From NCBI GenBank assembly GCA_001785965.1, contig MFVF01000030.1:1-51148 (forward strand): DNA of 51,148 nucleotides, given 5' to 3'. Origin of the DNA: Candidatus Nomurabacteria bacterium RIFCSPLOWO2_01_FULL_42_20 (GTDB taxonomy: Bacteria; Patescibacteriota; Minisyncoccia; Phycocordibacterales; CAZVEC01). Below the pieces are notes generated by a model. The model was not told the origin of the DNA. It searched no databases and worked only from the letters and a program-made list of their open reading frames with translations. Shown here piece by piece: positions 19,875 through 38,927 of this stretch (positions are counted from its first letter, which is position 1; each line of letters opens with the position of its first letter). The translations under genes were made by a program, and so were the position numbers.

Positions 19875-20771
19875 ATGATTAATCCTGAAAAATTTGAAGA
19901 AAAGAGCGATCCTATAAAAAAATTTAATGATTTTAAAATAAAACTTGCAGCAAATTCTTTGTATTTGCCAAACTACAAAGAATTGAAGGAAGCTTTTTCA
20001 CTTTTAGATAGTTCTGATATGGAAAAGTATGATATGGAAACGGCATTGTCCCATTTGTTTGTCGGGAAAGATCTCAAAAACACTCCTTTTGAAATTTGGA
20101 CAAAAGAGTATGTTGAACAACTTAGTTATTATTTAATTGAGAGACTAAAGGCACTAAAAGAAAATGATCCAAATACTCAAAATACTGTTCTGGAAGTTGG
20201 CGCAAGGGATGGCAGATTATCCCATTTCTTAAAAAACATTACTAGAAAAATAAATTCTTTTAAAGATTCTGGTTTAGATTTTGTAGCTACTGATAATCCG
20301 GAAAAATACAAAAAAGACTGGACAATTTTACCAAATATACCATTAGAAAAAATTGATTACAAAGATGCGATTGAGAAGTTTAAACCAACATTAGTAATAT
20401 GTTCATGGATGCCAGAAAATGAAGATTGGACTGAATTTTTCAGATCAAAACCATTTATTAAGGAATATATATTGGTTGGTAATATTGATAAATATGGAGA
20501 TTTTGAAAAAACATGGGGAGGGAGAGAAATTGTTAATTTATTAGGCAAGGCATTTTTAACGACTGCCAATAAAAACATTCCCAATGAAGTCATGGATAAA
20601 ATTAAAAAATTACCATTTTATAAAGATGGTTTTGATTTATATAGTCTCAAAAGATTAGAGAGTTATCAAGTTGATCACTCAACTTATTTTTACACAAAGC
20701 CTTTGGATAAAAGCGAGTGGAAATACAGTTATGCCAGAAGTGTTTCATTTAGGCGTCGAGATATTCAATAA
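19875..20771 (+). CDS. Hypothetical protein, possible SAM-methyltransferase-like fold
   Basis: 298-aa ORF. VLEVGARDGRLSHFL resembles SAM-binding motif I. Nothing else is recognisable. Confidence 0.5.
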   Translation: MINPEKFEEKSDPIKKFNDFKIKLAANSLYLPNYKELKEAFSLLDSSDMEKYDMETALSHLFVGKDLKNTPFEIWTKEYVEQLSYYLIERLKALKENDPNTQNTVLEVGARDGRLSHFLKNITRKINSFKDSGLDFVATDNPEKYKKDWTILPNIPLEKIDYKDAIEKFKPTLVICSWMPENEDWTEFFRSKPFIKEYILVGNIDKYGDFEKTWGGREIVNLLGKAFLTTANKNIPNEVMDKIKKLPFYKDGFDLYSLKRLESYQVDHSTYFYTKPLDKSEWKYSYARSVSFRRRDIQ

Positions 20772-20842
20772 TTCTTTCAAATGTCATTACTCTAGTTTTG
20801 GTTGAAGATGCATTAAATTAAAAAATATACTACAATTAAACT

Positions 20843-21364
20843 GTGAAAATAATTTTATTAAAAGACGTGCCGAAATTGGGACGAAAATACGATATCAAAG
20901 AAGCCAGCGACGGCTACGCTTTGAATTTTTTGATTCCCAGAAAATTAGCTGAAAGAGCCACTCCAGAAAAAATCGCCCAAATTGATAAATTAAAAAAAGA
21001 AATGCTGATTGCCAAAGAAGCGGGGGAGCAGGAGCTTTTGAAGGCCTTGGGGGCCATCAAAGGTCTAGAATTGATCATGAAAGCCAAAGTTTCCGACCTG
21101 CCTGCTCGCCTCGCTGACTCGCCTCGCTTCGCGGGCGAAGCGGGAGCTCCGGCGAAGCGGGCCGGCAAGGCAGGAAAAGGCCACCTTTTCTCGAGCATCA
21201 AAAAAGAAGATATAATAGAAAAAATGAAAAAAGATTATAACATAAGTCTCTCCGAGGATTCCATAAAAATGGAAAGCATAAAAGAAACAGGGGAGTTTGA
21301 AATACCGGTCGAAGTCAGCGGCAAAAAATCATCCTTCAAATTGATTGTTGAAAAGATTGATTAA
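20843..21364 (+). CDS. rplI: 50S ribosomal protein L9 (GTG start)
   Basis: MKIILLKDVPKLGRKYDIKEASDGYALNFLIPRKLA, with GHLFSSIKKEDI in the C-domain. Contains a 26-codon GC-rich insert. Confidence 0.9.
   Translation: MKIILLKDVPKLGRKYDIKEASDGYALNFLIPRKLAERATPEKIAQIDKLKKEMLIAKEAGEQELLKALGAIKGLELIMKAKVSDLPARLADSPRFAGEAGAPAKRAGKAGKGHLFSSIKKEDIIEKMKKDYNISLSEDSIKMESIKETGEFEIPVEVSGKKSSFKLIVEKID
21097..21174 (+). repeat. 78-nt GC-rich palindromic element inserted in frame in rplI
   Basis: CCTGCC (21097-21102) pairs with GGCAGG (21169-21174). Internal hairpin CGCTTCG-cggg-CGAAGCG (21125-21142). Encodes roughly DLPARLADSPRFAGEAGAPAKRAGKA between KAKVS and GKGHLF. Confidence 0.7.
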
Positions 21365-21408
21365 CTGCTTGGCTGTGCAGTATCCGATGTTACACATAAT
21401 AATTAAAA

Positions 21409-21450
21409 ATTATTCATTCTAACATTCTATAGAATGTTAGAATGAATAAT
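21409..21450. repeat. Perfect 42-bp palindrome with core CATTCTAACATTCTA|TAGAATGTTAGAATG
   Basis: Arms 21409-21429 and 21430-21450 are exact reverse complements. The 30-bp core is identical to 25101-25130. Confidence 0.9.
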
Positions 21451-21478
21451 CGGGCGAAATAAATAAAATAGTAATAAT

Positions 21479-21637
21479 ATGGAAAATAAATCAGAAACAA
21501 AAACACATTCGACAAGCCCCCACACCTTTTTACAAAAAGGTGTGGGGGCAAGCTCAGTGCAGGCCTGCCAAAACTGCAAGCAAAACTTCACGATCGAACC
21601 GGAATCCCAGCACTACATCAATTTATCGAATGCATAA
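21479..21637 (+). pseudogene. 5' fragment of a third Cys-rich zinc-ribbon paralog, carrying a hairpin element
   Basis: Reads MENKSET...CQNCKQNFTIEPE. All but one of the first 19 nt match the start of the gene at 23416. A perfect 15-bp-stem hairpin, CCCCCACACCTTTTT-ac-AAAAAGGTGTGGGGG (21517-21548), lies in frame. The ORF stops after 52 codons. Confidence 0.55.
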
Positions 21638-21675
21638 ATTGCTGAGTGCGGGATTTCGCTTTCAAAGATAAACAT

Positions 21676-23355
21676 ATGGAACAAAGTGAAAATAGAATAT
21701 GTCAAAACTGCCAGACTTCATTTGAGATAGACGCTCAAGATTTTGATTTTTATAAAAAGATCAATGTCCCGCCGCCGACATTTTGCCCGGAGTGCCGGTT
21801 TCAAAGAAGAATCATGTTTAGAAACGAGCGAACTCTTTATCGTAATTCTTGCGGTTTATGCGAGAAACAGATTATAACTATCTTTGATCCAGCTGGAGGC
21901 AAAAAAGTTTATTGTGGTAAATGTTGGTGGAGTGATGGTTGGGATGGCAGAGATTATGGACTTGGGTATAATCCCAATATAAACTTTTTCAAACAGCTTC
22001 GTGAACTTGTTAATAAAACTCCGTACCAATATCTTATTGTTGATTATTCAACTCTTGTGAATAGTGAGTATGTAAACCATGCCGGCAGTCTTAAAAATTG
22101 CTACTTAGTTTTTAACGCAGACCTTTGTGAAAATACTTATTACTCATCGGTAGTGGTAAAAGTTAATGATTCTGCCGACTGCACCATGATGAATAACACG
22201 GAACTTGCTTACGGCTGTATCGGCGGAGATGGGTCACAATTATATTTCTCTGAAAATTGCCCCAAATCTGTTAATGTTTGGTATTCGAAAGATTGCGTGG
22301 GCTGTACTAATTGTTTTGGCTGTGTAAATTTACGCAATAAAAGCTACCATATCTTTAACAAGCCGGTCACCAAAGAAGAATTTGAGAAAAATATTTCTGA
22401 AATGAGGCTCGACCTGCACTCGACACATGTTGCACTGAAGCCAAAAATATATGATTTCTGGAACAAATTTCCGCGAAAATATATGTACGGGCGAATGAAT
22501 AATAATGCAACAGGAGATTATATTTATGAATCTAAAAATGCTCTTGATTGCTATCAGGCGGTTTTTGTAGAAGATAGCCGGTATTGCCAATTCGTCACCA
22601 TGCCAACCACCAGGGATTGCTATGATTTTACCGAGTGGGGACATGGTGTGGAGCGCTGTATTGAGACGATAACAACAGGCGAAGGGGCCTATGAAGTCAA
22701 ATATTGTTCAGGAGTTTGGAGTAATACAAAAAACGTAGAGTATTCTATTTATTCGCCGGGGTGCAATAACTGCTTTGGCTGTGTAAATCTAATAAAAAAA
22801 GAATATTGCATCTTAAACAAGCAGTATTCTAAAGAAGAATTTTTCAAGCTCAAAGAAAAAATTATTTCGGATATAAAAACTAGGCCATATGAAGATTCAA
22901 AGGGGCGTAAGTTTAGTTATGGAGAATTTCTTCCTTATGATCTGTCACCGTTTGATTATAATGAATCATTTGCCCAACAATATTTTCCTCTAACAAAGGA
23001 GGAGACTATTAATAAAGGCTGGCGATATCATAATATTAAAAAACCGGATTATACTCCGACACTTACCACCGATCAGATTCCGGACAGTATTAATGATGTT
23101 AAAGACGACTTTTTGAAAGAAATAATTCCGTGCGTTGAATGTGAAAAACCATTTCGTGTTGTAAAGGGCGAACTAGAGCTGCTTAGACGTTTTAAGATAC
23201 ATGTCCCTCGTTCATGCCCGGATTGCCGTCATATGGGCCGACTCAAAAGAATGAATAAACCAAAATTTAACCACCGAAAATGCCAATGGCGATCACTGTC
23301 CGAACAAATTCGAAACCAGTTATTCTCCCGACCGGCCGGAAATAGTATACTGTGA
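21676..23355 (+). CDS. Cys-rich zinc-ribbon repeat protein, paralog 1 (apparent frameshift near 23284; conserved end in the next frame stops at 23383)
   Basis: N-terminal CQNC...FY.K.NVPPPTFCPECRFQRR and CGLC...VYCGKCWW. Two NCFGCVNL(R/I)(N/K)K.Y motifs. C-terminal CVEC...CPDCRH. The final ribbon DHCPNKF...DRPEIVYCEKCYQSEVV is readable only in the next reading frame (shifted by one base). Confidence 0.7.
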   Translation: MEQSENRICQNCQTSFEIDAQDFDFYKKINVPPPTFCPECRFQRRIMFRNERTLYRNSCGLCEKQIITIFDPAGGKKVYCGKCWWSDGWDGRDYGLGYNPNINFFKQLRELVNKTPYQYLIVDYSTLVNSEYVNHAGSLKNCYLVFNADLCENTYYSSVVVKVNDSADCTMMNNTELAYGCIGGDGSQLYFSENCPKSVNVWYSKDCVGCTNCFGCVNLRNKSYHIFNKPVTKEEFEKNISEMRLDLHSTHVALKPKIYDFWNKFPRKYMYGRMNNNATGDYIYESKNALDCYQAVFVEDSRYCQFVTMPTTRDCYDFTEWGHGVERCIETITTGEGAYEVKYCSGVWSNTKNVEYSIYSPGCNNCFGCVNLIKKEYCILNKQYSKEEFFKLKEKIISDIKTRPYEDSKGRKFSYGEFLPYDLSPFDYNESFAQQYFPLTKEETINKGWRYHNIKKPDYTPTLTTDQIPDSINDVKDDFLKEIIPCVECEKPFRVVKGELELLRRFKIHVPRSCPDCRHMGRLKRMNKPKFNHRKCQWRSLSEQIRNQLFSRPAGNSIL

Positions 23356-23415
23356 GAAATGTTATCAGTCGGAAGTGGTGTAAGCGCTTCTCTAATTCGC
23401 ACGAATAGGAGAATA

Positions 23416-25095
23416 ATGGAAAATAAATCGGAAAACAGAATATGTCAGAATTGTAAGACTTCTTTCGTAATTGAGATAGATGATTTTTCATTTTATGAAA
23501 AAATGAATGTGCCGGCACCCGTTTTATGTCCCAATTGCCGTTTCAAACGCCGGGCGATTTGGCGCAATGAAACCACTCTTTACACCGGCCGCAAATGCGC
23601 CAAATGCGGCAAATCAATTGTTTCGATGTATAATCCAAAATCACCTTACACGGTTTATTGTCACGAGTGCTATAATTCCGATTCCTGGGACCCGAGAGAC
23701 TACGCAATGGATTACAACGAATCAAAACCGTTCTTTGAACAATTTGGCGAATTGATTAAAAAAGTTCCTAAGATGACTACTTACATCACCACTGGATTGG
23801 GCCCAAATGTTAATAGTGACTATACTAATACCGCCGGCGGCAATAAGAATTGCTATATGGTTTTTAATAGTGGTTTAAATGAAAATGTTCTGTATTCTCG
23901 CGGCGTTACTTCTTGCAGAGACTCTCTTGATATGTATTTTACAACTGAAATAGAACTCGGCTATGAATTAGTAAATACGCACAAAGCAAGCAAAATAATT
24001 TGGAGCAAGAACAACCCCGCTTGTCTGGACTGCGCTTTTCTTTTAAATTGCAGTGGGTGCACTAATTGCTTCGGCTGTGTAAACTTGCGCAATAAATCTT
24101 ATCATTTCTTCAACCAACCATTGAGTAAAGAGGAATATCAAGACAAGGTTAACAAAATCATGGGAAGCTATAGAGAGATGGAAAAATTCCGGAAAGAATT
24201 TGAGGATTTTTCTCTTCAATTTCCGCGTCGGGAAAATAATAATCTTAAAACCGTCAATTGCGTCGGAGATTATATCACCGAAGGCAAGAATCTTTTTAAC
24301 TGTTTTGAGGTGGCGGAAGCCGAAGATTGCAAAAATATGTTTTCCGCCAAAAAAATAAAAGATTCTTATGATGTTATTGGTCACGGTTATTACAGCGAAC
24401 TTCTTTTAGAGTGTAATGGGACAGGTATTTCAAGTCGGGTTATTGGTTCGTCTAATGTTGAAAATGGTAATAATTTAGAATATTGTTATTTTTTGATGCC
24501 TAACAACAAGTATTGTTTTGGTTGTAATTCTCTGCGAAATGCCGAATATTGTATTTTAAACAAGCAATACACTAAAGAATCCTTCGACAAGCTCAGGACG
24601 AAAATTATTTCGGAATTAAAAGAAAAAAATTTATATGGTCTTTTTATGCCGCCGGAATTATCGCCTTTTGCCTATAACGAAACGGTTGCCCAAGACAACA
24701 TGCCTCTCTCCAAAGAAGAAGCTTTAAAACAAGGCTGGCGCTGGGAAGACAACTTGCAAAAAACCGAAGGCAAAGAAACTCTTAAACCGGAGCAAATTCC
24801 TGATCATATTAAGGATGTGCAAGACGGCATTACCAAAGAGATTTTGGTCTGCATTTCCTGCAACAGGAATTACAAAATTGTGCCGGATGAACTTTTGTTT
24901 TACCGTAAAATGAATTTGCCTTTGCCCCGCAAGTGCTTCAGTTGCCGCCATACCGACCGAATTCGCCGCCGCGGGCCGATGAAATTCTGGACTCGCCATT
25001 GTGCTAAATGCAATAAAATTATTACAACAACTTTTGCTCCCGACCGCCCCGAAATAGTATACTGTGAGAAATGCTATCAGTCAGAAGTTGTTTAA
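23416..25095 (+). CDS. Cys-rich zinc-ribbon repeat protein, paralog 2
   Basis: AGGAG SD upstream. Same architecture as paralog 1: CQNC...CPNCRFKRR, CAKC...VYCHECY, NCFGCVNLRNKSYHFFNQP, CFGCNSLRNAEYCILNKQY, CISC...CFSCRH, CAKC...VYCEKCYQSEVV. Confidence 0.8.
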   Translation: MENKSENRICQNCKTSFVIEIDDFSFYEKMNVPAPVLCPNCRFKRRAIWRNETTLYTGRKCAKCGKSIVSMYNPKSPYTVYCHECYNSDSWDPRDYAMDYNESKPFFEQFGELIKKVPKMTTYITTGLGPNVNSDYTNTAGGNKNCYMVFNSGLNENVLYSRGVTSCRDSLDMYFTTEIELGYELVNTHKASKIIWSKNNPACLDCAFLLNCSGCTNCFGCVNLRNKSYHFFNQPLSKEEYQDKVNKIMGSYREMEKFRKEFEDFSLQFPRRENNNLKTVNCVGDYITEGKNLFNCFEVAEAEDCKNMFSAKKIKDSYDVIGHGYYSELLLECNGTGISSRVIGSSNVENGNNLEYCYFLMPNNKYCFGCNSLRNAEYCILNKQYTKESFDKLRTKIISELKEKNLYGLFMPPELSPFAYNETVAQDNMPLSKEEALKQGWRWEDNLQKTEGKETLKPEQIPDHIKDVQDGITKEILVCISCNRNYKIVPDELLFYRKMNLPLPRKCFSCRHTDRIRRRGPMKFWTRHCAKCNKIITTTFAPDRPEIVYCEKCYQSEVV

Positions 25096-25100
25096 TATAG

Positions 25101-25130
25101 CATTCTAACATTCTATAGAATGTTAGAATG
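25101..25130. repeat. Perfect 30-bp palindrome, identical to the core at 21415-21444
   Basis: CATTCTAACATTCTA|TAGAATGTTAGAATG, beginning 6 nt after the paralog 2 stop. Confidence 0.9.
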
Positions 25131-25157
25131 TTATTCAAGCGGAGGTTGTATAATCCA

Positions 25158-25298
25158 ATGAAATTTGATATAGTTAGGCCAATGAAAATTTTGCCCATAT
25201 TTATATTGATTATTTTCGTTTCTATAGCTGTTTTCGGCTTTTTGGCCATGGGCCACCATGATGGCAATTGCACTTTTGATTGCCTGGCTCAATCTTAA
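25158..25298 (+). CDS. Possible 46-aa membrane peptide with His/Cys tail
   Basis: GGAGG lies 12 nt upstream. Encodes MKFDIVRPMKILPIFILIIFVSIAVFGFLAMGHHDGNCTFDCLAQS. Below the 60-aa size of the ORFs listed in the supplied track. Confidence 0.3.
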   Translation: MKFDIVRPMKILPIFILIIFVSIAVFGFLAMGHHDGNCTFDCLAQS

Positions 25299-25494
25299 TA
25301 TGCTCTTCATCCGGAAATCTACACGGCTAAAATAGCAGAAGTTCCTTCATTTTTGGAACCTCAAACCTCTAAAGGCTTTTCTGTTTTTGTCCCTGATCAT
25401 ATCGTCGTGCCCATATAAATTTCTCCTAATAAGTCTTGCTCAAGTCGATGAGTAAGGGTTTTTTATTGTTTATTAAATTAGATTTTAGAAAATT

Positions 25495-26007
25495 ATGAAA
25501 AATAAAAACACAATCATTACAGTTATCGCACTGATAATAATTTTCGGCGGGCTTGTTTATTTCGCCAAGCCGAGCCAGAAACCAAGCGAAAAAGCAAACG
25601 CCGTTTCAGATGAACCTTCTTCTGCGGCGGCTCTTACTGCCGCTGAAACATTCTATAATTTCGGAGAAGTTTCCATGGCGAACGGCAATGTGAATCATGA
25701 ATTCAAGGTTAAAAATAATGCGGCCGGCCCGATTAACGTTGCTAAAATTTACACGTCCTGCATGTGCACAACCGCTTCAATTACAGTAGGAGAGAAAACG
25801 AAAGGACCTTTTGGCATGCCCGGGCACGGCTTGGTGCCAAAAGCCAATATGGAAATTCCGGCTGGAGCGGAAGCTGTAATCACAGCTATATTTGACCCGA
25901 ACGCCCACGGTCCGGCAGGCGTAGGCCGGATTGAAAGGGAAATATATCTTGAAGACGACGCTGGCGCTCAAACAATACTCAAGTTTGAGGCGACGGTCAC
26001 CCCGTAG
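25495..26007 (+). CDS. DUF1573-like membrane-anchored protein
   Basis: N-terminal TM segment; YNFGEVSMANGNVNHEFKVKNNAAGPINVAKIYTSCMCTT matches the DUF1573 pattern. Confidence 0.6.
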   Translation: MKNKNTIITVIALIIIFGGLVYFAKPSQKPSEKANAVSDEPSSAAALTAAETFYNFGEVSMANGNVNHEFKVKNNAAGPINVAKIYTSCMCTTASITVGEKTKGPFGMPGHGLVPKANMEIPAGAEAVITAIFDPNAHGPAGVGRIEREIYLEDDAGAQTILKFEATVTP

Positions 26008-26011
26008 TAAG

Positions 26012-26046
26012 ACGCGGACTTTCGCTGACTAAACGCGGACTTTCGC
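26012..26046 (+). promoter_or_regulatory. Direct repeat ACGCGGACTTTCGC x2, 21 nt apart, upstream of the ccdA-like gene
   Basis: Copies at 26012-26025 and 26033-26046 are identical, between the stop at 26007 and the start at 26057. Confidence 0.4.
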
Positions 26047-26056
26047 AGAAAAAAAT

Positions 26057-26911
26057 ATGGAAAATATGGAAAATGAAAATAAAAATAATTGTTGCCAAAA
26101 CGGAGAACAAAAAGAAAATAATGTGAAAAAATCAAATAAAATATGGTGGCTTATTATTGCCGGCTTGATTGTCGTCGGACTCGCGATTCTTCTTAAATAT
26201 TCCACGGGTTCGTCGCAGGTGATCTGGGATATAAGCGATGGGGGAAAGTGGCTTCTGCCGCTTGTCGGAATTACGGCTTTAGTTGACAGCATCAATCCCT
26301 GCGCCTTCTCAATTTTGCTTTTAACCATCGCCTTTCTCCTGTCGATAGGACGAATGAGATCAAGTATTCTGAAAATCGGAGGAATATATATCTTCGGAGT
26401 TTTCACCGCCTATATTCTGATCGGCCTCGGCATTCTGGGAGCGCTTCACATATTCAACACTCCGCATTTCATGGGCAAATTGGGCGCCGGACTTTTAATT
26501 GCTCTCGGCATTATAAGCTTGATCCAAGAAATATTTCCCAATTCTCCGATCAAGCTTAAAATTCCAAAATGGAGCCACGGCTTGCTCGCGCGCGTAATGG
26601 AAAAAGCTTCTATTCCAGCCGCTTTTGTTCTCGGCATTTTAGTCGGCCTCTGCGAATTTCCTTGCACTGGCGGACCGTACTTGATGATTCTCGGACTTCT
26701 TCACGACAATGTCACCTATATTAAAGGCGTCGGCTATTTGTTCATCTACAATCTTATCTTCATCTTGCCGCTCGTCATCATTCTGGCGATTGCCAGCCGA
26801 AAGTACTTGCTTGATAAAGTTGAAGCGTGGCAGAATAAAGAAAAAAGATTGATGCGTCTTGGCGGCGGAATCGCCATGATTATTCTTGGCATAATTATCT
26901 TCTTGTTATAA
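26057..26911 (+). CDS. ccdA: CcdA/DsbD-type thiol:disulfide electron-transfer membrane protein
   Basis: Polytopic protein; SINPCAFSILL and LCEFPCTGGPYL are cysteine-bearing TM motifs. Confidence 0.65.
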   Translation: MENMENENKNNCCQNGEQKENNVKKSNKIWWLIIAGLIVVGLAILLKYSTGSSQVIWDISDGGKWLLPLVGITALVDSINPCAFSILLLTIAFLLSIGRMRSSILKIGGIYIFGVFTAYILIGLGILGALHIFNTPHFMGKLGAGLLIALGIISLIQEIFPNSPIKLKIPKWSHGLLARVMEKASIPAAFVLGILVGLCEFPCTGGPYLMILGLLHDNVTYIKGVGYLFIYNLIFILPLVIILAIASRKYLLDKVEAWQNKEKRLMRLGGGIAMIILGIIIFLL

Positions 26912-26948
26912 AATAATATTACTATCAGTAGTTAAAATATATAATTAC

Positions 26949-27449
26949 ATGAAAAAAATAATTATCTGGATCTTGGTTGCTATTATCATTGTGGGAGGAT
27001 TTTATTGGCTTTCAAAGATTTCAAAGAAAGAGGAAGGCGTTCGGCCGGGGGAAGCTATTTCAGTTCAGGGCGCTAAACACATTTCCGTTGGAGACTCTCA
27101 TCCGGAATATAATTCCAATCCGCCGACGTCCGGCTGGCATTATGCAGGTCCGGCTGATTGGGGTTTTTATGACGAGGAACTTCCGGACGAACAACTCGTG
27201 CATAGTTTAGAGCACGGCGGTATTTGGATCTCTTATAAAGATATTGATGAAGAAACAAAAGGAAAATTGAAAGAATTGGGCGGTCGTTACCCAAAAAGCG
27301 TTATCACAACGCCGCGGGCGAAAAACGACGCCAAAATTGTCCTGGCGTCATGGGGCCGTTTGCAGAAATTTGATCAATATGACGAGGAAGCCATAAAGAG
27401 CTATATCAAAGCCAATCTAAACAAATCTCCGGAACCGTTGGCCATGTAA
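26949..27449 (+). CDS. DUF3105 domain protein, membrane anchored
   Basis: YNSNPPTSGWHY...LVHSLEHGGIWISY. Confidence 0.65.
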   Translation: MKKIIIWILVAIIIVGGFYWLSKISKKEEGVRPGEAISVQGAKHISVGDSHPEYNSNPPTSGWHYAGPADWGFYDEELPDEQLVHSLEHGGIWISYKDIDEETKGKLKELGGRYPKSVITTPRAKNDAKIVLASWGRLQKFDQYDEEAIKSYIKANLNKSPEPLAM

Positions 27450-30197: not shown

Positions 30198-33100
30198 ATG
30201 AGTATTTCTAAAACATCTTCAATTGCCGATATTTTAAAGAAAAAAACATCTCTTTCTTCTAATCCCGATATTGCCCTTAAATATTTAAAGAAATTTAAAT
30301 TAAAAGCCCGCAATGTCAGAGCGCTCTATGGCGAGCTGATGGCGCTTTGTTCGGGCCTTCGGCATATCACTCATGAGATTGAATCAATTATTGACAACTT
30401 TTTCGCGGTAGAAGCCGCTATTTTTGAAATAGAAAATCATATTAAAAAAAGCGATTTCAAAAATCTTCCGCTTATTGCCGCCGAAAAAAATAAATATGCC
30501 CCTCGCTTGCACTTCATCCTTTCCGGGCTTCTTAAAGAAAATAGTCAGATTATTGATAGAGAAATATTAGAATCTTTTCTTGTCTCGTACCAAAAGCATA
30601 GCCCGCTTTCAATTAGAGAATTATATGCCATTCCTCTTTTACTCCAAGTCGTTCTTGTTGAACATTTTGGAAAACTTATAGAGCAATCCATAAAATTCCT
30701 TAGAGAATACCGCGAGGCTGATATTACATATCAAAACATAAAAGATCAGGTCAATAAAGCATCATTCAGCGAATTTTCAAAAATTACTTCCGATCTTGGA
30801 TCAAAATACCCGCTTATTCCGCTTTCTTTCGGACTTCATCTCTACCAGAAACTTTCCCAAGAAGGCTCTGTCATGAGGCCGGTTATCAAATGGATAAAGC
30901 TTAATTTAGACAAACAGGGGATTAATCTAAAAAATCTTGGAGAAATAGAAAGCAGATTAAAAAGCGAAGATTTCAATACAATATCGCATATTATCGAATC
31001 GCTTCATTGGATAGCTCAAACTCGCTGGGATGATATTGTGCAGGAAATAAATGTTGTTGATACCATACTTTCAAGAGATCCGGCTGGAATATATTCAAAA
31101 ATGGATATTGAAAGCGCCATGGAGTACCGAAAAGCGATTGTGCGCATTGCTGAAAGAGCGGCTATTCATGAAGCGGAAGTTGCAAAAATTGCCGTAAGAT
31201 TGGCCTCCTCTAATGATGCATCTTTAAGCATGGCTAAAAAGCATGTGGGGTATTATCTTGTGGATAAAGGGATAATTGAACTTGAAAAGAAGATCGGGTA
31301 CCGGCTTTCTTGGAAAGACGTCTTGTATCGCTTTATTGTAAAAAACAATCAGGAATTTTATTTTTCTTCAGCTTTTGGTATTAATATTGTTCTAACTCTC
31401 GGCTTGGGCTTTATTTTTTGGAATTACAATGCTTCACTTTTATCCGCTTCTCTGTTTATGGTTGTTGTTTTTTTATTGAACACTGAAATTACGCTTAATA
31501 TTTTGAATGTTATTATTACTCGTTTCTTGCCGGTAAGAAAGCTTCCGAAGCTTGATCTTTTAAGTGTCGTAAGCGAAAAGCAAAGAACTTTTGTCGTTGT
31601 TCCTTCAATGTTCCACGGTGTTGAAACCGTGCATAATCTTATAAGAAAGCTTGAGGTTTGTTATCTAGGCAATCCTCAGGAAAATATTTTATACGCGCTT
31701 CTGCTTGACTTTAAAGATGCGTCAAGCGAGACGATGCCTGAAGATGACGCCCTTATAAAAGCAACTCAGGAAGGAGTAGATAATCTAAACGCCCGCTATT
31801 CCCAAAATGGCCAAAAATTTTTTATCTTGTACCGAAAACGCATCTGGAATGAAAAAGAGGGCGCTTATATGGGCTGGGAGAGAAAAAGAGGAAAGCTTCG
31901 CGAATTTAATATGCTTCTTAGGGGAGCGCGGGAGACATCATACATGAATGGTGATGTTCTTAGAAATATTGGCCATATTTCTTATGTAATTACTCTAGAT
32001 GAAGACACAGAATTGCCAAAAGACGCCGCCTCTGGGCTTATCGGAACCATTGACCACCCTCTTAATAGGCCCGTGCTTTCTTTATCCGGAGACAGAGTTG
32101 AAAGAGGTTATGGAATTATACAGCCGAGGATAGGCATACGGTTGGCGCTAGCTTCAAAATCAATTTTTTCAAGGCTTTTTTCATCTGTTTCCGGTATTGA
32201 TTCATATTCCAGCGCCGTATCGGATGTCTATTATGATCTTTTTGATAACAGTCTTTTTTTTGGAAAAGGAATATATGATATTGATGCCGTAGAAAAAGTG
32301 ATGGATGGAAAAATTCCAGATAATCTTATTTTATCGCATGATTTGCTCGAGGGACTCTACACTAGAGTAGGTTTTGCCAGCACTATTGTTTTATTTGACG
32401 GTTTTCCAAATTTTTACCACGAATTTATGATTCGCCTGGATCGATGGATCAGGGGCGATTGGCAGATTATTGGCTGGATAAAAAGAAAATATCATCCGAA
32501 GGGAGCCAGAGAGCCAACTCTTCATTTTTCTTTCATTGACAGATGGAAAATTATTGACAACCTGCGCAGAAGCCTCATACCGGTATTTTCAATAATGATC
32601 ATAGCTTATGGAATATTTTCCGCTATGCCGCTAGGGCAGATAAGCATATACGCGGTTTTTGTTTTCGGCGCTCCTTTTTTAGCCGCTCTAGCCAGCGATC
32701 TTTTCTCACTTAAAAAGGTGCCTTTTTCTGTAAGATTTTATGATACATTAAGGCAAATAAAATTGACATTTCTGCATATAATTTTGCGCGCCGCCATCAT
32801 TCTGCACCAGGCAATTGTTTCAATCACGGCGATTTTCAGGGCTATCATTAATTTGATAATAAAGAAAAATCTTCTTAGATGGCATAGTTTCTCCGATGTT
32901 AGCAAAAAATTGAGCGGAAAATTGCTTGGGTATTATCAAACAATGTGGACAACGCAATTTGTATCAATTTTTTTAGCCATCTTAGCCTATTTTTTCGCTC
33001 CGATCAATAATTTTTTGTATTTTTGGCTGATTTTTTGGTTATTGTCTCCCTTAGTCGGGTATTTTATCAGCTTGCCTCGGAATAAAAAGAAAATTCTTAA

Positions 33101-36100
33101 TCCTAAGGATACAAGAATGCTGCGATCCATTGCTTATAGGACATCACATTTTTTTACTGATTTTTCACATAAAGAAAACAATTGGCTGGCCCAAGATAAT
33201 TATCAGGAATATCCTAAAATTATAGGGATTTCACATCCTGCAACTTCTCCAACAAATATAGGAATGCTTTTTACCTCGCTTTTTTCTTCGTATGAATTCG
33301 GATTTATACCTCTTGATCATTATATAGATAAAACCCGCAGGGCTTTCGCGAGCGTTTCAAAACTTGATCGTTTTAAGGGCCATCTTTATAATTGGTATGA
33401 TATTACAAAATTGCAGTCCCTTCACCCGAAATACGTATCAAGCATAGATAGCGCAAATTTTGTCGTGGCTCTCATTACTGTGCGCCAAGGACTCAAATCC
33501 ATTGCCCAAAAACCTCTTGTGAGTAGCAGTGTGATTCGGGGGGTAGAAGATGCGCTTTATGTCTTAGATGAAGAGGTTGAACGCGTGATGAATAGAAATT
33601 CGTTTTCCAAAATTTCCCGAAAAATATTGCGGGCAATACGCCTCAAAGTCAAAGTGGTTTATAAAATGGTCAATACTTTCAATGAGCCTGAAACAATTTC
33701 TGAAGCGTATTTGTTTCTTTCCAAGGTTTACGAACATATAGGCCGCATAGAAAAGTCTATTACCAGCCTTAAAGCGCATACCCATTCAAGCGAACTTAGC
33801 TTTCTGTTTGCATATGGCGAAAGATTGATGAATCTTGTTGAAACTCATCTTAGGTTTATAAGATATATTTTCCCTCACTCCACGCCACTGGATACGGCAA
33901 TACGCTCATATGTTTTCAGGGATATTTATTTGTTTGCGGTGTACAAAGATTTTATAAAGTGTATTCAAAAAATCCCAACTTTTTATGAACTTGCTACTTC
34001 ATATTTAGATCAGGCAGAATCTTTGAATTTCAGAAAAGCAATTATATCTTCACATCTGGCCCCCGATACAAAAAAATATATTTTGTCGTGGTATGACATT
34101 ACAGTAGCTGATATACGTCGCGCCCAATCACGGGCTAGAGAATTTCTTTCTGATATTGAATATTGTGAAAATGAATGCGCTAGATTTATTGATGAGCCGG
34201 ATTTTACGTTCTTTTACAATAAAGAGCGGGGACTTTTTCATATAGGATACAATGCGGCTTTTGGGAAAATTGACAGTGCTACGTATAATTTCTTAGCTTC
34301 AGAATCAAATTCTATTTCATTTGTTTCAATACTCAAAAATCAAATTTCTTCAAAAAACTGGTTTTATTTGGGACGCAAGTTTATACGATCAGGCCAAGGA
34401 ATTGCCCTGGTATCATGGGGCGGTTCGCTTTTTGAATATTTGACTCCTCTTCTTTTCTTCAAAACCCACCCGGAAAGTCTGCTGGGAAAAACAGCTTTGA
34501 CGGCTATCCGCACTCACCAAAGCGATGCTCGAAGAGAGGGCACGCCCTGGGGCATGGGCGAATCCGCCTATTATGCTTTTGACTCCGTGAAGCATTATCA
34601 GTATCAAGTTTTTGGAAGCGCCAAACTTGGTCTGAAGCGCGGCCTTTCTGATCATCATGTAATTGCTCCTTACACCAGTATTTTGGCGCTTTCTGTTGCC
34701 CTGCGCAAAGCAGTCGACAATATTAAAAATTTAATTTCTTTGGGCGCGAAAGGGAATTATGGCTTGTATGATGCCATTGATTATATGGATGAAAGGCGAG
34801 TAAGAATTTCCGAACCCCTGCCAATAAAGATATATTATGCCCACCATCAAGGTTTTGTTATGCTTGGCCTCCACAATATTCTCCTCAAAAATACGATTCA
34901 GGAATATTTTCACAATGATCCCCGAGTTGAAGCGCTCGAAATTCTTCTTGAAGAAAAAATGCCGACAAGCATAGACGCGCGGTTCTTGTCAAAGCCAGTA
35001 AGAATGTCTCTGGCGGTCGCTTCTACAAGCAGAGATACCGGCTTTGAAAGTAAAAGATATATTCCCGCCAAGATCCGCATTCCTCGATATGCTCTTATAT
35101 CAAATGGTTCTTATTCCATAGGAATCAGTAATTCCGGCGCCGGATGGTCTAATTATAAAGGTGTTTCCTTAACCCGGTCGAGACACGACGGTATCATAGA
35201 AGAATATGGCTCATATATTTTCGTTAAGGATGAAAAGACCGGCATGGTCTGGTCTCCAACAATTCATCCGCTCTCGCGAGAGGCCCAAAAGCAAAAAATT
35301 ATTTTTTTTGAGAATAAAGCCGAATTTTTTTCCTCCATGGGCAATATTGCTTCCCGGCTGGAAGTAACAGTCGATCCGCAAAATCCTGTCGAGGTGAGGC
35401 AGTTGACCATGACAAATAATGGAAGTGAAAGAGTTAAGCTCCAAGTAGCGAGTTACGGGGAAGTGTCGCTTGCTCTCAATCTGCAGGATGTCCAGCATCC
35501 AAAATATCATAAGCTTTTGGTGGCATCAGAATTTCTAGAGGAATACGATACTCTTATATATTCGCGCCCTCATCCGGAAGATAGATTGAAAAAAATTTAT
35601 TTTTCCCACACCCTTGTTCAGGGGGTGTTTGAAAAAGCGCCAATATTTCCCTGTGTGGAAAGAGAAAAGTTTATTGGCCAGTATGGGTCATTATCAGAGC
35701 CTATCATTTTTAACTCGAATATAACTGATTCAGGCGTGAAAGAATATTCCCTTGACCCCATATTTTCCTTGCGCCACACTATCGATCTTAAAGCCGGGGA
35801 ATCAGTTCATTTTTCTTTTGTAAATTGCGCGAGTGAGAGCAGGGAAGAACTCATAAGGCTGATTAAGCAATATAAAAAACCAAGGATGCTGGCGAATCTT
35901 TTTGCTCGCGCGGAAAAGGAAAGCGCTATGACGACTAAAAAATTAAACATCACTCAGGAAATGGCCGTCGTTTATCAGGAACTTGCGAGCGTGGTGCTGG
36001 GCGGAAAGATGCAAACTACAGTGTCTCATGCGCCTGAAACGCGCCTTCCTTACATTCATTTTTTATGGCACCATGGAATTTCCGGAAATAATCCTCTTGT

Positions 36101-38927
36101 AATGATAGCCATAAAAGACACTGAAGATCTTCAAATGATCCAATATGCCTTGTCATGCCATGCTTATTGGAAACACAAGGGCTTGAATATTGATATTGTT
36201 ATTTTTAATCAAGAACCCGCGAGTTATATAAAGTTTTTAGATGATGAAATAGACTTTCTTATCCGCCAAAAACGCATAGCGGAGGCCGATGGCAAGAAAA
36301 GTGCCGTATATCATGTTAAGTCCGATTTGATGACAAACGAAGAAAGAAAGGCGCTTCTCTTTGCCGCTAAAGTCATAATCGACAGTAAGACCGGCAGTTT
36401 TAAAAAGCAGGTTTCAAACTTCCTCTTTTCAAAAAATTTAAAATTTCCGGAAAAACTTTCAGCCCTTGCTCGTCATTCTAAAATTTCACCAAAAACAGCA
36501 TTAAGGGGGGCGCTGCCAAAAAATTTGCTTTTTACCAATAGTTTTGGCGGATTTGATGAGATAAATTCAGAATACGCAATGCATATTTCCAGCAATAATA
36601 TGCCGCCGGCTCCATGGACAAATATTATTTCAAATGAAAATTTTGGAACTATTATTACTGAGGCCGGTTCAGCGAATACATGGGCCGTCGATAGTTATGA
36701 TAATCGCATTACTTCATGGCAGAATGATTCTCTCGTATTCAAAAGTCCTGAAATTGTTTATATTCGCGATAAGGAAACGGGCGAAATATGGAATCCGACT
36801 CCGTTTCCGGTGCCTACGGACGAACCATTTATTGTCCGCCATGGAAAAGGCTACACCATATTTGAACATAATCATTCTGGCATTGAACACTCATTTGAGA
36901 TTTTTGTGCCCCGATCTGAAAAAATAAAGATATCTCGTCTTAAAATTAAAAATAAAACAAAGATAAAAAGAAATCTATCCGTCACTTCGTATTTGGAAAC
37001 GGTAATGGGTATTAGTATTGACCCTAGTAATAGTCGGGATTTTTTGCAGTTTTCAAAAAACCGTGCTACCGGCGCTCTCTTGATTAGAAACATGTTTAGA
37101 AATAATTTTCACAATAGCATTGCTTTTGCAGATATAAATGGCGGCTCATATAAGGTTTCCACCAATAGGGAGGAATTTTTGGGCCGTTATGGCTCTTATA
37201 GTTCCCCTGAAGCTCTTAGTCGAGTTTCTCTTTCAGATGAGATTACCCATGGCTCCGAAGGGTGCGCGGTATTAGAGAGTGTTATCAAACTCGATCCGGA
37301 TGAGGAAAAAGAAATCATTATCATTCTTGGCGAAACCGAAAGCGAATCAGAAGTTGAGCGAATGATTATCAAGTATCGTTCAATAAAGAATGTTAAAGCA
37401 GAGCGAGAAAAAATTCGTTCATTTTGGTCATCCGTTTCATCAAAAATTCAGATTGAATCTCCCGACAAAAAGCTTGATATTATGTTTAATCAAAATCTTT
37501 TATATCAAGTGCTGTCGTCTCGCTTGATGGCAAAAACCGGATTTGACCAGCCGGGCGGCGCCTATGGTTTCAGAGACCAGCTTCAAGATATTATTTCTTT
37601 GGTTTGGTCGAATCCAGGGCGTGTCCGATCATTTATTCTGAAAGCCGCGATGCATCAATTTAAAGAAGGAGACGCGATGAATTGGTGGCACGACCATAAT
37701 AATTTTGGAATTCGAAACGTGCTTTCCGACCATCAGTTATGGCTTGTATATGCGATTACTGAATATATTTCTATCACAGGAGACAAAGATATTCTTGATG
37801 AATTAATCCCATATCTTGAAGGACACGATGTTAATTTCACTTATCAAAGGGAATGGGCGGGCATCCCGGATCTTTCTAATGAAAAAGACACTCTGTATGA
37901 GCACTCTATCAGAGCGCTTGAAAAAAGCCTGGTTTTTGGAAAACACAATCTGCCTCTTATAGGAATGAGTGACTGGAATGACGGTCTTTCAAGAGTGGGG
38001 ATTTTGGGCAAAGGTGAAAGTGTTTGGTTAGGGTGGTTTCTTATTTATCTTCTGGAAAAAATTATTCCTTACGTGGAAGAAAGAAATGACACTCTGCGTC
38101 TTTCTCGCTACAAGCTCGCAATAGACAATCTTGTGAAAGCCCTTGATAAAAACGCCTGGGATGGGAGGTGGTATAAAAGAGCTTTCCTCGACAATGGTGT
38201 CGCTCTTGGCTCGCACAAACTGAAGGAATTTAAAATAGATTCTCTTTCGCAATCTTGGTCAGTCTTATCAAAAAAAGGCAATCCCGAAAAAGTTTCAAAA
38301 GCTATTCATTCAGGGCTCTCGTATCTGTATAATGGAAAAAGCATGAAGATTATCGCGCCGCCGCTCAAAATGTCTTTATTTGATCCGGGTTATATAAAAG
38401 ATTATCCGCCCGGTGTTCGCGAAAACGGCTCGCAGTATAATCACGCGGCGCTTTTTATGGCTCAAGCCCTTTTTATTCTGGGCGAATCAGATACCGCGAA
38501 AAAGATTATTGATTTAGTAAATCCGATTACCCACTCTGATTCCCATAAAAAAGCTTTAGTCTATCGTGCCCAACCAAATGTCGTCGCTTCAGATATTTAT
38601 ACCAATCCTTCATTTGAAGGCAGGGGCGGATGGACTTGGTATACGGGTTCCGCGGCTACAATGTATAAAACTATTATTCAGTTTATGTTTGGTTTTAATA
38701 AAAAAGGGGATTCTCTTTCTTTCAGCCCTTCTTTACCTTCAGACTGGACTTCGTGCGCCATCACATATCATTATGGAAATTCTTTGTATCATATAAATAT
38801 TGAAAAGCCGGCCGGCATCCACAATACTGTTATGGAAGTGTATGAAAATAACGTAAAAATAAAAGATAAAACAATCAAGCTCGTTGATGACAGTCAAGAA
38901 CATTTTATTAAAGTTGTTCTATCCTAG
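30198..38927 (+). CDS. cgs: Cyclic beta-1,2-glucan synthase-like giant protein (GT84 domain, TM segments, GH94 phosphorylase-like C-terminus)
   Basis: 2909-aa uninterrupted ORF. GT-region motifs ITLDEDTELPKDA, ILSHDLLEG and RWIRGDWQ, flanked by multiple TM helices. C-terminal GH94-like motifs FRDQLQD, GMSDWNDGL and ENGSQYNHAA. Confidence 0.8.
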   Translation: MSISKTSSIADILKKKTSLSSNPDIALKYLKKFKLKARNVRALYGELMALCSGLRHITHEIESIIDNFFAVEAAIFEIENHIKKSDFKNLPLIAAEKNKYAPRLHFILSGLLKENSQIIDREILESFLVSYQKHSPLSIRELYAIPLLLQVVLVEHFGKLIEQSIKFLREYREADITYQNIKDQVNKASFSEFSKITSDLGSKYPLIPLSFGLHLYQKLSQEGSVMRPVIKWIKLNLDKQGINLKNLGEIESRLKSEDFNTISHIIESLHWIAQTRWDDIVQEINVVDTILSRDPAGIYSKMDIESAMEYRKAIVRIAERAAIHEAEVAKIAVRLASSNDASLSMAKKHVGYYLVDKGIIELEKKIGYRLSWKDVLYRFIVKNNQEFYFSSAFGINIVLTLGLGFIFWNYNASLLSASLFMVVVFLLNTEITLNILNVIITRFLPVRKLPKLDLLSVVSEKQRTFVVVPSMFHGVETVHNLIRKLEVCYLGNPQENILYALLLDFKDASSETMPEDDALIKATQEGVDNLNARYSQNGQKFFILYRKRIWNEKEGAYMGWERKRGKLREFNMLLRGARETSYMNGDVLRNIGHISYVITLDEDTELPKDAASGLIGTIDHPLNRPVLSLSGDRVERGYGIIQPRIGIRLALASKSIFSRLFSSVSGIDSYSSAVSDVYYDLFDNSLFFGKGIYDIDAVEKVMDGKIPDNLILSHDLLEGLYTRVGFASTIVLFDGFPNFYHEFMIRLDRWIRGDWQIIGWIKRKYHPKGAREPTLHFSFIDRWKIIDNLRRSLIPVFSIMIIAYGIFSAMPLGQISIYAVFVFGAPFLAALASDLFSLKKVPFSVRFYDTLRQIKLTFLHIILRAAIILHQAIVSITAIFRAIINLIIKKNLLRWHSFSDVSKKLSGKLLGYYQTMWTTQFVSIFLAILAYFFAPINNFLYFWLIFWLLSPLVGYFISLPRNKKKILNPKDTRMLRSIAYRTSHFFTDFSHKENNWLAQDNYQEYPKIIGISHPATSPTNIGMLFTSLFSSYEFGFIPLDHYIDKTRRAFASVSKLDRFKGHLYNWYDITKLQSLHPKYVSSIDSANFVVALITVRQGLKSIAQKPLVSSSVIRGVEDALYVLDEEVERVMNRNSFSKISRKILRAIRLKVKVVYKMVNTFNEPETISEAYLFLSKVYEHIGRIEKSITSLKAHTHSSELSFLFAYGERLMNLVETHLRFIRYIFPHSTPLDTAIRSYVFRDIYLFAVYKDFIKCIQKIPTFYELATSYLDQAESLNFRKAIISSHLAPDTKKYILSWYDITVADIRRAQSRAREFLSDIEYCENECARFIDEPDFTFFYNKERGLFHIGYNAAFGKIDSATYNFLASESNSISFVSILKNQISSKNWFYLGRKFIRSGQGIALVSWGGSLFEYLTPLLFFKTHPESLLGKTALTAIRTHQSDARREGTPWGMGESAYYAFDSVKHYQYQVFGSAKLGLKRGLSDHHVIAPYTSILALSVALRKAVDNIKNLISLGAKGNYGLYDAIDYMDERRVRISEPLPIKIYYAHHQGFVMLGLHNILLKNTIQEYFHNDPRVEALEILLEEKMPTSIDARFLSKPVRMSLAVASTSRDTGFESKRYIPAKIRIPRYALISNGSYSIGISNSGAGWSNYKGVSLTRSRHDGIIEEYGSYIFVKDEKTGMVWSPTIHPLSREAQKQKIIFFENKAEFFSSMGNIASRLEVTVDPQNPVEVRQLTMTNNGSERVKLQVASYGEVSLALNLQDVQHPKYHKLLVASEFLEEYDTLIYSRPHPEDRLKKIYFSHTLVQGVFEKAPIFPCVEREKFIGQYGSLSEPIIFNSNITDSGVKEYSLDPIFSLRHTIDLKAGESVHFSFVNCASESREELIRLIKQYKKPRMLANLFARAEKESAMTTKKLNITQEMAVVYQELASVVLGGKMQTTVSHAPETRLPYIHFLWHHGISGNNPLVMIAIKDTEDLQMIQYALSCHAYWKHKGLNIDIVIFNQEPASYIKFLDDEIDFLIRQKRIAEADGKKSAVYHVKSDLMTNEERKALLFAAKVIIDSKTGSFKKQVSNFLFSKNLKFPEKLSALARHSKISPKTALRGALPKNLLFTNSFGGFDEINSEYAMHISSNNMPPAPWTNIISNENFGTIITEAGSANTWAVDSYDNRITSWQNDSLVFKSPEIVYIRDKETGEIWNPTPFPVPTDEPFIVRHGKGYTIFEHNHSGIEHSFEIFVPRSEKIKISRLKIKNKTKIKRNLSVTSYLETVMGISIDPSNSRDFLQFSKNRATGALLIRNMFRNNFHNSIAFADINGGSYKVSTNREEFLGRYGSYSSPEALSRVSLSDEITHGSEGCAVLESVIKLDPDEEKEIIIILGETESESEVERMIIKYRSIKNVKAEREKIRSFWSSVSSKIQIESPDKKLDIMFNQNLLYQVLSSRLMAKTGFDQPGGAYGFRDQLQDIISLVWSNPGRVRSFILKAAMHQFKEGDAMNWWHDHNNFGIRNVLSDHQLWLVYAITEYISITGDKDILDELIPYLEGHDVNFTYQREWAGIPDLSNEKDTLYEHSIRALEKSLVFGKHNLPLIGMSDWNDGLSRVGILGKGESVWLGWFLIYLLEKIIPYVEERNDTLRLSRYKLAIDNLVKALDKNAWDGRWYKRAFLDNGVALGSHKLKEFKIDSLSQSWSVLSKKGNPEKVSKAIHSGLSYLYNGKSMKIIAPPLKMSLFDPGYIKDYPPGVRENGSQYNHAALFMAQALFILGESDTAKKIIDLVNPITHSDSHKKALVYRAQPNVVASDIYTNPSFEGRGGWTWYTGSAATMYKTIIQFMFGFNKKGDSLSFSPSLPSDWTSCAITYHYGNSLYHINIEKPAGIHNTVMEVYENNVKIKDKTIKLVDDSQEHFIKVVLS

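Follow-up and report, generated by a model that had tools for sequence, protein, structure and literature searches.

Introduction

Hexameric ATPases are known to be served by adaptors, such as the partners of type IV coupling proteins and the adaptors of the zinc-binding domain of ClpX. Here we describe a large family of Cys-rich proteins from Patescibacteria that resembles those adaptors in two ways: its genes adjoin VirD4/TraD-like ATPases, and the ATPases and the family have a zinc module in common. On the other hand, the family has no sequence or structural relationship to known adaptors, the ATPases are soluble proteins whose genes do not accompany those of a secretion channel, and we infer the interaction. 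We studied two adjacent members of the family, copy 1 and copy 2, that are encoded in a 51,148-nucleotide (nt) stretch of DNA from Candidatus Nomurabacteria bacterium RIFCSPLOWO2_01_FULL_42_20 (contig MFVF01000030.1 of assembly GCA_001785965.1). We call this whole stretch the window. The pair had been noticed from the sequence alone as tandem paralogs of a Cys-rich protein with paired ribbons at both ends, in a locus that looked as if it might turn over rapidly. We refer to this as the original prediction.

The ribbons themselves have described relatives. Small proteins from Methanosarcina that are made of a CxxC-x17-CxxC domain bind zinc, as measured by inductively coupled plasma mass spectrometry (PMC12704099). 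The type B ribbons of the window proteins have exactly this spacing, as do the small TIGR04272/PF23477 proteins of M. mazei. Unlike the single-domain proteins of Methanosarcina, the window proteins have two such ribbons inside a protein of 560 amino acids (aa) that contains other modules. Type A ribbons resemble PF13451 (zf_Tbcl, "probable treble clef domain"), with two CxxC pairs of which the second is at the start of a helix, but at 20 bits, the scores of the window proteins are below the cut-off of 24 bits. Also, as PF13451 has no assigned function, a match to it names the module and not the protein.

The ATPases have been surveyed as well. A 2025 survey found 5,713 VirD4 homologs in 2,918 genomes of Patescibacteria, of which only 148 are near virB4 (PMC12102498). 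In one cultured species, the VirD4 homolog was dispensable for epibiotic growth, and exaptation of the homologs to other roles was suggested (PMC12102498). The type IV secretion systems (T4SS) of Patescibacteria lack key components for conjugation, and their substrates are unknown (PMC12102498). In the literature, we found no description of the Cys-rich family, of its motifs, or of tandem Cys-rich paralogs in Patescibacteria, nor any paper that links VirD4-like ATPases to this family. One paper that came up, on the Lipocone, has only keywords in common with our subject and is unrelated.

Results

A large family in Patescibacteria

The two genes lie on the plus strand as open reading frames (ORFs) at 21646-23355 and 23359-25095. 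From alignments with relatives, the true starts are likely to be the ATG at 21676 for copy 1 (MEQSENRICQNC) and the ATG at 23416 for copy 2 (MENKSENRICQNC). This gives 21676-23383 for copy 1 (E 4e-205 against the family profile; its reading frame is discussed below) and 23416-25095 for copy 2 (E 8e-303). Copy 2 is intact, with 559 aa, and is 100% identical to a hypothetical protein at NCBI (A3A09_01870; P0001). Its ATG has GGAG 5' of it and is 32 nt past the stop of copy 1, once the frame of copy 1 is restored. Aligned over 540 residues, copies 1 and 2 show 41% identity (E 4e-140), and the N-terminal ribbon pair of one copy aligns to the C-terminal pair of the other (35% identity, 80 aa, E 8e-13). 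So they are indeed tandem paralogs.

Homology searches found more than 6,000 database proteins for each copy (6,492 in the first search). Almost all of the named relatives are "hypothetical protein," and nearly all are from Patescibacteria. With a profile, we also searched 1.84 billion cluster representatives exhaustively, with clusters defined at 50% identity. This gave 4,966, 3,488, and 2,049 clusters at E of up to 1e-3, 1e-10, and 1e-30, respectively. Among the 150 clusters listed, the proteins have 527-602 aa, and almost all of them match the profile from end to end. Relatives are present in at least 587 stretches of species-representative genomes. The 80 of these that were listed are labeled as Patescibacteria or as unclassified metagenome-assembled genomes, except for one "Burkholderiales" genome. 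That label is almost certainly wrong, because the locus has a G+C content of 31%. By label or by composition, then, we saw this huge family only in Patescibacteria-type contigs.

The two copies belong to different subfamilies. The subfamily of copy 2 is the best conserved: its relatives include one at 84% identity (P0002) and three at 74-78% (P0003-P0005), with most others at 57-63%, and they are found in contigs labeled as Nomura-, Jorgensen-, Lipton-, and Staskawiczbacteria, among others. The nearest relative of copy 1 outside of its own strain (P0272) is 64% identical. Depending on the cut-off, the family splits into 16-72 subfamilies, many of which recur across genomes. Among 137 adjacent pairs elsewhere, identity ranges from 28% to 58% (median 40%), and none exceeds 58%. 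Since the copies in the window are just 41% identical, they are old paralogs. The locus in the window is a two-gene operon of ancient paralogs plus a decayed relic.

Arrays and neighboring ATPases

We used the family profile to search 84 sequences, namely the window and 83 other loci. More than one copy is present in 54 of the 84, and the number of copies per locus ranges from 1 to 17. Several 21-kb loci have 7-11 copies (11 in L044), and because L044 and L060 overlap, we could count 17 distinct copies over 32.4 kb of one contig. The arrays are co-directional, with 233 of the 234 family ORFs on the strand of the seed gene. From a stop codon to the codon for the first CxxC of the next gene, the median distance is just 29.5 nt, so the arrays appear to be tightly coupled operons.

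The most common neighbor from outside the family is a soluble VirD4/TraD/HerA-like ATPase of the FtsK-HerA class, with 60 genes in 34 loci. There is a short form of about 500 aa and a long form of about 700-1,000 aa. The long form also has a ribbon that matches zf_Tbcl_2 (E 3.7e-13), then a long tail that is disordered and of low complexity, and a conserved KE(I/V)PEDVL..VLE motif at the C-terminus, so the long ATPase shares the type B ribbon with the family. At the flanks of family runs, ATPases occupy 14.4% of the immediate positions, as compared to 6.2% of all non-family genes in the loci (binomial p 1.5e-5), which is more than expected by chance. For 53 of the 132 family genes that could be evaluated, one of the first two non-family genes in either direction encodes an ATPase. 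The original prediction had proposed that the neighborhoods of homologs be checked for conservation, and this check uncovered a recurring order: rpsI-grpE-[family]-dnaK-ATPase-[family]-ATPase-dnaJ. The closest relative of copy 1 from outside its strain is in such a dnaK-ATPase-[family]-ATPase-dnaJ setting. Examples of the ATPases are at L003:2280-4451, L042:1533-3044, and L207:1-1935, and they are often between dnaK and dnaJ.

Given neighbors of this kind, the paralogs might be cargo: they would be delivered by the T4SS of Patescibacteria, via the VirD4-like ATPases, into or onto the host, with many paralogs for many targets. The arrays do adjoin homologs of coupling proteins, multigene arrays are typical of host-interaction proteins, and these T4SS lack key components for conjugation and have no known substrates (PMC12102498). 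Nevertheless, we think that this is unlikely. The ATPase sequences that we read have no N-terminal membrane anchor, and only an atypical member of 790 aa (L074) starts with a hydrophobic stretch. VirD4 homologs are rarely near virB4 (PMC12102498). The last 31 residues of copy 2 form a conserved CxxC-x17-CxxC ribbon that ends 6 residues before the stop, with a predicted local distance difference test (pLDDT) score of about 78-85. This would be a folded zinc knuckle, and judging by the sequence, copy 2 probably does not have the disordered and, in most cases, positively charged C-terminal tail of a type IV translocation signal. The four zinc sites would need to be unfolded for transport. Also, 57-63% identity across many candidate groups, as in the subfamily of copy 2, is far above what is usual for effectors.

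The arrays also bring to mind a structural scaffold specific to this lineage, that is, a hetero-oligomer or filament in which paralogs join head to tail via their homologous N- and C-terminal zinc modules. The spacing of the genes hints that their translation is coupled, and the arrays run strictly in one direction; the modules at the two ends are homologous, the core is beta-rich and repetitive, and the subfamilies are old and conserved. But a range of 1 to 17 copies per locus is unlike a fixed stoichiometry, and the full-length model is compact, with a predicted template modeling (pTM) score of 0.81. A scaffold seems improbable to us.

Zinc ribbons at both ends

Both copies have the same layout: a type A ribbon and a type B ribbon, a duplicated beta-rich core, a linker, and another pair of type A and type B ribbons. 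As the original prediction had it, the pairs at the two ends are related: in profile-profile comparisons with hhalign, the N-terminal and C-terminal type A ribbons match with E 3e-15, and the type B ribbons match with E 3e-14.

In copy 1, the N-terminal type A ribbon (aa 9-45, 21700-21810) was identified with a regular expression and by direct reading. It is followed by a type B ribbon, CGLC-x17-CGKC, at 21850-21924, which matches zf_Tbcl_2 (E 2.7e-4; aa 62-94 in the numbering of the listed ORF). A regular expression also located the type A ribbon at the C-terminus (aa 486-522, 23131-23241), and the type B site that follows reads ..GDHC-x17-CEKC. If copy 1 is intact, its C-terminal ribbon has a His-rich insert of 20 residues. 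In copy 2, the N-terminal module at 23443-23670, which was found with the regular expression as well as with zf_Tbcl, consists of a type A ribbon (aa 10-46, 23443-23553) and a type B ribbon, CAKC-x17-CHEC (aa 61-85, 23596-23670). The C-terminal module of copy 2 is at 24850-25074, with type A at aa 479-515 and type B, CAKC-x17-CEKC, at aa 529-553. All of these are on the plus strand. The exact CxxC-x17-CxxC spacing holds for both type B ribbons of copy 2 and for the N-terminal one of copy 1. The motif that had been written down for type A matches nothing as it stood, because one of its spacers was off by one. With x3 instead of x4 at that point, Y allowed in place of F, and CR-x2-3-R at the end, it matches all four sites.

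Matches of the ribbons to known families are near threshold. For type A, the N-terminus of copy 2 scores 20.0 bits against PF13451 zf_Tbcl (cut-off 24; E 6.6e-4, aa 8-47). At E of up to 1, zf_Tbcl matches 26 of the 32 aligned proteins (best E 3.2e-5), and a few database relatives have precomputed matches to PF13451 (P0026, P0039, and P0297). For type B, the C-terminal module of copy 2 scores 26.4 bits against PF23477 zf_Tbcl_2 (cut-off 27; E 5.5e-6), and copy 1 scores 21 bits. This model matches 28 of the 32 aligned proteins (best E 3.6e-7), and precomputed matches to PF23477 are found in many relatives. The cut-off for TIGR04272, which also describes CxxC-x17-CxxC, is 36 bits. We conclude that only the ribbons reach Pfam, via zf_Tbcl and zf_Tbcl_2/TIGR04272, so the statement that these proteins cannot be placed in a named family still holds.

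The treble-clef pattern is present in type A, where C10/C13 and C38/C41 are conserved across the family. In the AlphaFold 2 (AF2) model of copy 2, the type A ribbon has strands at 6-9 and 16-19 and helices at 21-30 and 39-47, with pLDDT mostly at 88-91. Over most of the N-terminal module, pLDDT is 86-91, with a hairpin-plus-helix pattern. An Arg-rich helix comes after the type A ribbon, and the C-terminal type A region is basic (isoelectric point, or pI, of 10.1). Some subfamilies lack the cysteines of the N-terminal type B ribbon. Given the dnaJ/dnaK context and the CFGC motif, we also considered the CxxCxGxG zinc finger of DnaJ (PF00684), but it matches none of the 32 proteins of this alignment (A1). 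In contrast to the CxxCxGxG of DnaJ, the motif in this family is CFGC..L. It occurs twice, and across the family its only conserved cysteines are C218 and C370.

The median protein in the family has 34 cysteines, and we predict three or four zinc sites per protein. Could these proteins be a buffer or store for zinc or another metal, in a cell that has few reserves? Besides the cysteines and the predicted sites, there are metal-related genes nearby: CutA1-like genes at 9 loci and an NRAMP-type metal transporter at 4 loci are inside or beside arrays (L042, L059, L068, and others). Still, four zinc atoms per 560 residues would make a poor store. Furthermore, conservation is strong both for the sequence outside of the ligands and for the division into subfamilies, and this implies functions in specific binding. 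We consider a metal store to be most improbable.

The duplicated core

Between the two pairs of ribbons, about 290 residues form a duplicated unit of about 140 residues (hhalign of the two halves, probability 99%, E 2.4e-18). In copy 2, this beta-rich core is at 23806-24630, with half 1 at aa 131-268 and half 2 at aa 269-405. Each half ends with CFGC..L.N..Y and then a helix. The CFGC motif was said to occur twice per protein, and it matches as it had been written: it is at 24064-24102 and 24511-24549 in copy 2, while in copy 1, the first motif, NCFGCVNLRNKSY, is at 22309-22347 (the end of core half 1), and the second is at 22768-22806. In copy 2, the core is followed by an acidic linker (24631-24825; pI 4.6) with a nearly invariant (L/I)(A/S)PF(A/S)YNE. 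The median pI for the family is 6.3. The window proteins have neither a signal peptide nor a hydrophobic segment (the maximum 19-residue Kyte-Doolittle average is 1.19 for copy 2 and 0.59 for copy 1), and their first CxxC is at residue 9-10, so they are predicted to be soluble.

Conservation differs between the core and the zinc modules. Within subfamilies, as compared to the family as a whole, conservation rises by 0.18 in both halves of the core and by 0.07-0.15 in the zinc modules. From one subfamily to another, it is the core that varies more and the zinc modules that vary less. No positions are conserved within subfamilies (at least 0.85) yet variable across the family (at most 0.45).

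The AF2 model of full-length copy 2, from 32 sequences, has a pLDDT of 79.7 and the pTM of 0.81 mentioned above, and it is confident for the zinc modules and the helices. A model of just the core, from 122 sequences (pLDDT 78, pTM 0.70), has two beta-rich halves with a helix after each. The core has no match in Pfam, NCBIfam, PADLOC, or PHROGs, nor in a profile search of PDB sequences, and none of the 32 proteins in alignment A1 has a match to a Pfam repeat family. For the two window proteins, there is no match in PADLOC at E of up to 0.1, and in PHROGs the only matches are on the ribbons, at E of 0.02-0.04. Foldseek gave no significant match for the full-length model against PDB and BFVD or for the core-only model against PDB. 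The sole near-hit is a phage "zinc-ribbon" protein (E 5e-3), and it too is on the ribbons. Thus, neither searches with hidden Markov models (HMMs) nor Foldseek searches with the AF2 models gave a confident match to a characterized family, which is the kind of match that would have spoken against the original prediction. Beyond the zinc fingers, the family lies outside of every described kind of protein that we compared it to.

The insignificant Foldseek matches for the core (E of at least 0.028, TM-score of about 0.1, against PDB) are mostly parallel beta-helices. Together with a period of about 12 residues that can be seen by eye, in the consensus and in how the strands of the first model are spaced, they would fit a solenoid-like repeat, and they are not evidence of homology. 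In being beta-rich and in this period, the core is like the beta-solenoids (the right-handed parallel beta-helix enzymes and tailspikes, and pentapeptide-repeat proteins like MfpA). Unlike them, it has a duplicated unit of about 140 residues that ends with CFGC..L.N..Y and a helix.

The core might instead be an enzyme, with an active site formed by K144, Y147, E156, D172, and Y183, which are conserved across the family in half 1 only, and with substrates that differ between paralogs. In favor of this, the conservation of charged residues is asymmetric, in half 1, and the weak Foldseek list is led by beta-helix enzymes that act on glycans. However, those matches are not significant, the HMMs of enzyme families do not match, and we found no cofactor motif. 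It seems quite unlikely to us that the core is an enzyme.

A relic, a deletion, and generic palindromes

The impression of rapid turnover came from several features of the window, the first of which is a fragment 5' of the pair. This 52-aa ORF (21479-21637, plus strand) has a weak match to the family: in hmmsearch with a search of three sequences, SVQACQNCKQNFTIEPESQHY matches profile positions 5-25 with E 6e-5. Its first zinc knuckle is CQNCKQNFTIEPE (21554-21616). Over the 31 nt around its start (21467-21497), it resembles the beginning of copy 2 (23404-23434), with 81% identity, and the ORF is present in the sister assemblies as well. From these similarities, it is plausibly the decayed 5' relic of a third family gene, much as had been predicted. 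Inside it, at 21516-21549, is a perfect G+C-rich hairpin with 16-bp arms and a gap of 2 nt (-31 kcal/mol, z score -6.7). The hairpin could be a small insertion that helped to inactivate the ancestral gene. We looked for it as a repeated element and found a single site in the window and, elsewhere, sites only in four contigs of the sister strains.

The second feature is a frameshift in copy 1. It is present in this sequence, but the deletion that causes it is specific to this assembly: compared to four assemblies that are about 99.9% identical, 59 nt are missing between 23288 and 23289. Those four sister assemblies encode an intact copy 1 of 588 aa (P0271). In the window, copy 1 is encoded in frame 0 as far as 23288. 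From 23285 on, the +1 frame leads to a stop at 23381-23383, just after an ending, ...PDRPEIVYCEKCYQSEVV, that is typical for the family. The deletion removes the His-rich insert of the last ribbon and shifts the frame. It is either a strain variant or an assembly error. We also saw that the last 70 nt or so of the two copies are 86% identical, which is far above the level for the genes as a whole and may suggest local gene conversion or strong constraint.

Third, the locus is bracketed by two palindromes. Palindrome 1 is a perfect palindrome of 42 nt (21409-21450), 45 nt past the stop of the gene for ribosomal protein L9 (-22.8 kcal/mol, z score -8.9), with a terminator-like score on the minus strand. 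Palindrome 2 has 38 nt (25097-25134), is 95% self-complementary, and begins 2 nt past the stop of copy 2 (-22.4 kcal/mol, z score -7.3). Their 30-nt cores (21415-21444 and 25101-25130) are identical, as had been reported, but they do not mark the boundaries of a unit. Within the window, a search with a 26-nt core gave these two sites only (and none in 100 shuffles). In contrast, a 24-nt core search with the core TCTAACATTCTATAGAATGTTAGA gave exact matches in at least 118 metagenome stretches. We examined the context of 85 sites in 80 of these stretches (L089-L168). The outer arms vary from site to site yet stay complementary, which gives palindromes of 34-42 nt. Most of the sites are past the 3' ends of genes or between convergent genes, and a family gene adjoins the palindrome at only 2 of the 85. 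The placement past gene ends and the rarity of family genes nearby are why the palindrome looks to us like a generic terminator-like or repetitive extragenic palindromic (REP)-like element that is lineage-wide by appearance; we found no description of it. We had also considered an operator or promoter, and this is ruled out by the 22 convergent sites as compared to only 3 divergent ones.

Taken at face value, such features would make this a cassette or contingency locus that turns over rapidly within its own palindromes, perhaps for defense or variation. A relic, a disrupted copy, identical flanking palindromes, and 3' ends that are 86% identical could all be cited for this, and the position of arrays varies between close relatives. 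But the paralogs are old: each copy in the window has closer relatives elsewhere than its neighbor, and adjacent pairs in other genomes never exceed 58% identity. The four sister assemblies do not have the deletion, and the palindrome is generic, with sites past the 3' ends of other genes. Nor do the two proteins match a family in PADLOC or PHROGs, and there is no recombinase among the neighbors that we scanned against Pfam. We therefore abandon the idea of a rapidly turning-over, possibly cassette-like locus as very unlikely. Some slow birth and death does take place at family loci, given the 5' relic and the varying position of the arrays.

Other features of the window

In the window, the pair comes after rplI and is followed by four genes at 25128-27449, right after palindrome 2. 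They encode a small hydrophobic membrane protein, a protein with DUF1573, a DsbD/CcdA-like membrane protein, and a protein with DUF3105, and they could be an envelope operon for handling thiols or metals. The L9 gene (20843-21364) has a G+C-rich insert that encodes an Ala/Gly/Arg/Pro-rich segment (..LPARLADSPRFAGEAGAPAKRAGKAGKG..) between its two domains; as called, the protein is 173 aa long in one sister assembly and 165 aa long in two others. Further along, at 30198-38927 on the plus strand, is a single ORF of 2,909 aa. Rfam has no match across 20700-25600 of the window. Because of the dnaK context, we also searched for the CIRCE heat-shock operator (controlling inverted repeat of chaperone expression), and it is absent from the window and from the 84 family loci.

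Discussion

We tentatively propose that the co-expressed paralogs are target-specific partners, or adaptors, of orphan VirD4-like ATPases. This is the best guess that we have, and our confidence in it is low. The zinc modules would serve as constant handles for docking or for binding nucleic acids; we suggest this because from subfamily to subfamily they change less than the core does, and because of the Arg-rich helix after type A. The duplicated core would be the binding surface that is specific to each paralog, and each paralog would bring its own macromolecule, either a protein or a nucleic acid, to the ATPase motor. The pair in the window would be such a set that has become parted from its ATPases.

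Several observations weigh against this proposal. There is no VirD4-like ATPase in the 51 kb of the window, and about 60% of the family genes elsewhere do not have one close by. The link to the ATPases is one of gene position. Arrays are also found among grpE, dnaK, dnaJ, rpsI, rplI, and cysS, so part of the association with ATPases could be inherited synteny. The confidence of the model for the core is moderate, with pLDDT of 57-77 in the full-length model and 78 in the core-only model. Finally, K144, E156, and D172 are conserved across the family in half 1 only, and this could equally mean an enzyme.

The features that seemed to indicate rapid turnover turn out to be ordinary: the frameshift is specific to one assembly, and the palindrome is a generic element past the ends of genes. 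What is left is a family for whose core fold we could detect no relative in the PDB. The genomes of Patescibacteria are among the smallest of any bacteria, and still 17 copies take up 32 kb of one contig. Also, the best-conserved subfamily maintains about 60% identity across contigs labeled as several candidate groups, which points to an important cellular function that is specific to this lineage and has no name in the databases.

The link to the ATPases is a concrete and testable lead, as the 2025 survey left open what VirD4 does outside of T4SS (PMC12102498). Going beyond our proposal of target-specific partners, the arrays and the orphan soluble ATPases might together form an undescribed machine of Patescibacteria, in which up to 17 or more co-expressed adaptor paralogs, each with its own cargo, would serve a hexameric motor that has a zinc ribbon. 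We are doubtful about this larger idea. If it were true, then the paralogs would select macromolecules as cargo, for example for exchange with host cells or for the handling of imported DNA or protein. It would also explain why these minimal genomes have about two homologs of coupling proteins each whose genes lie apart from those of a secretion system.

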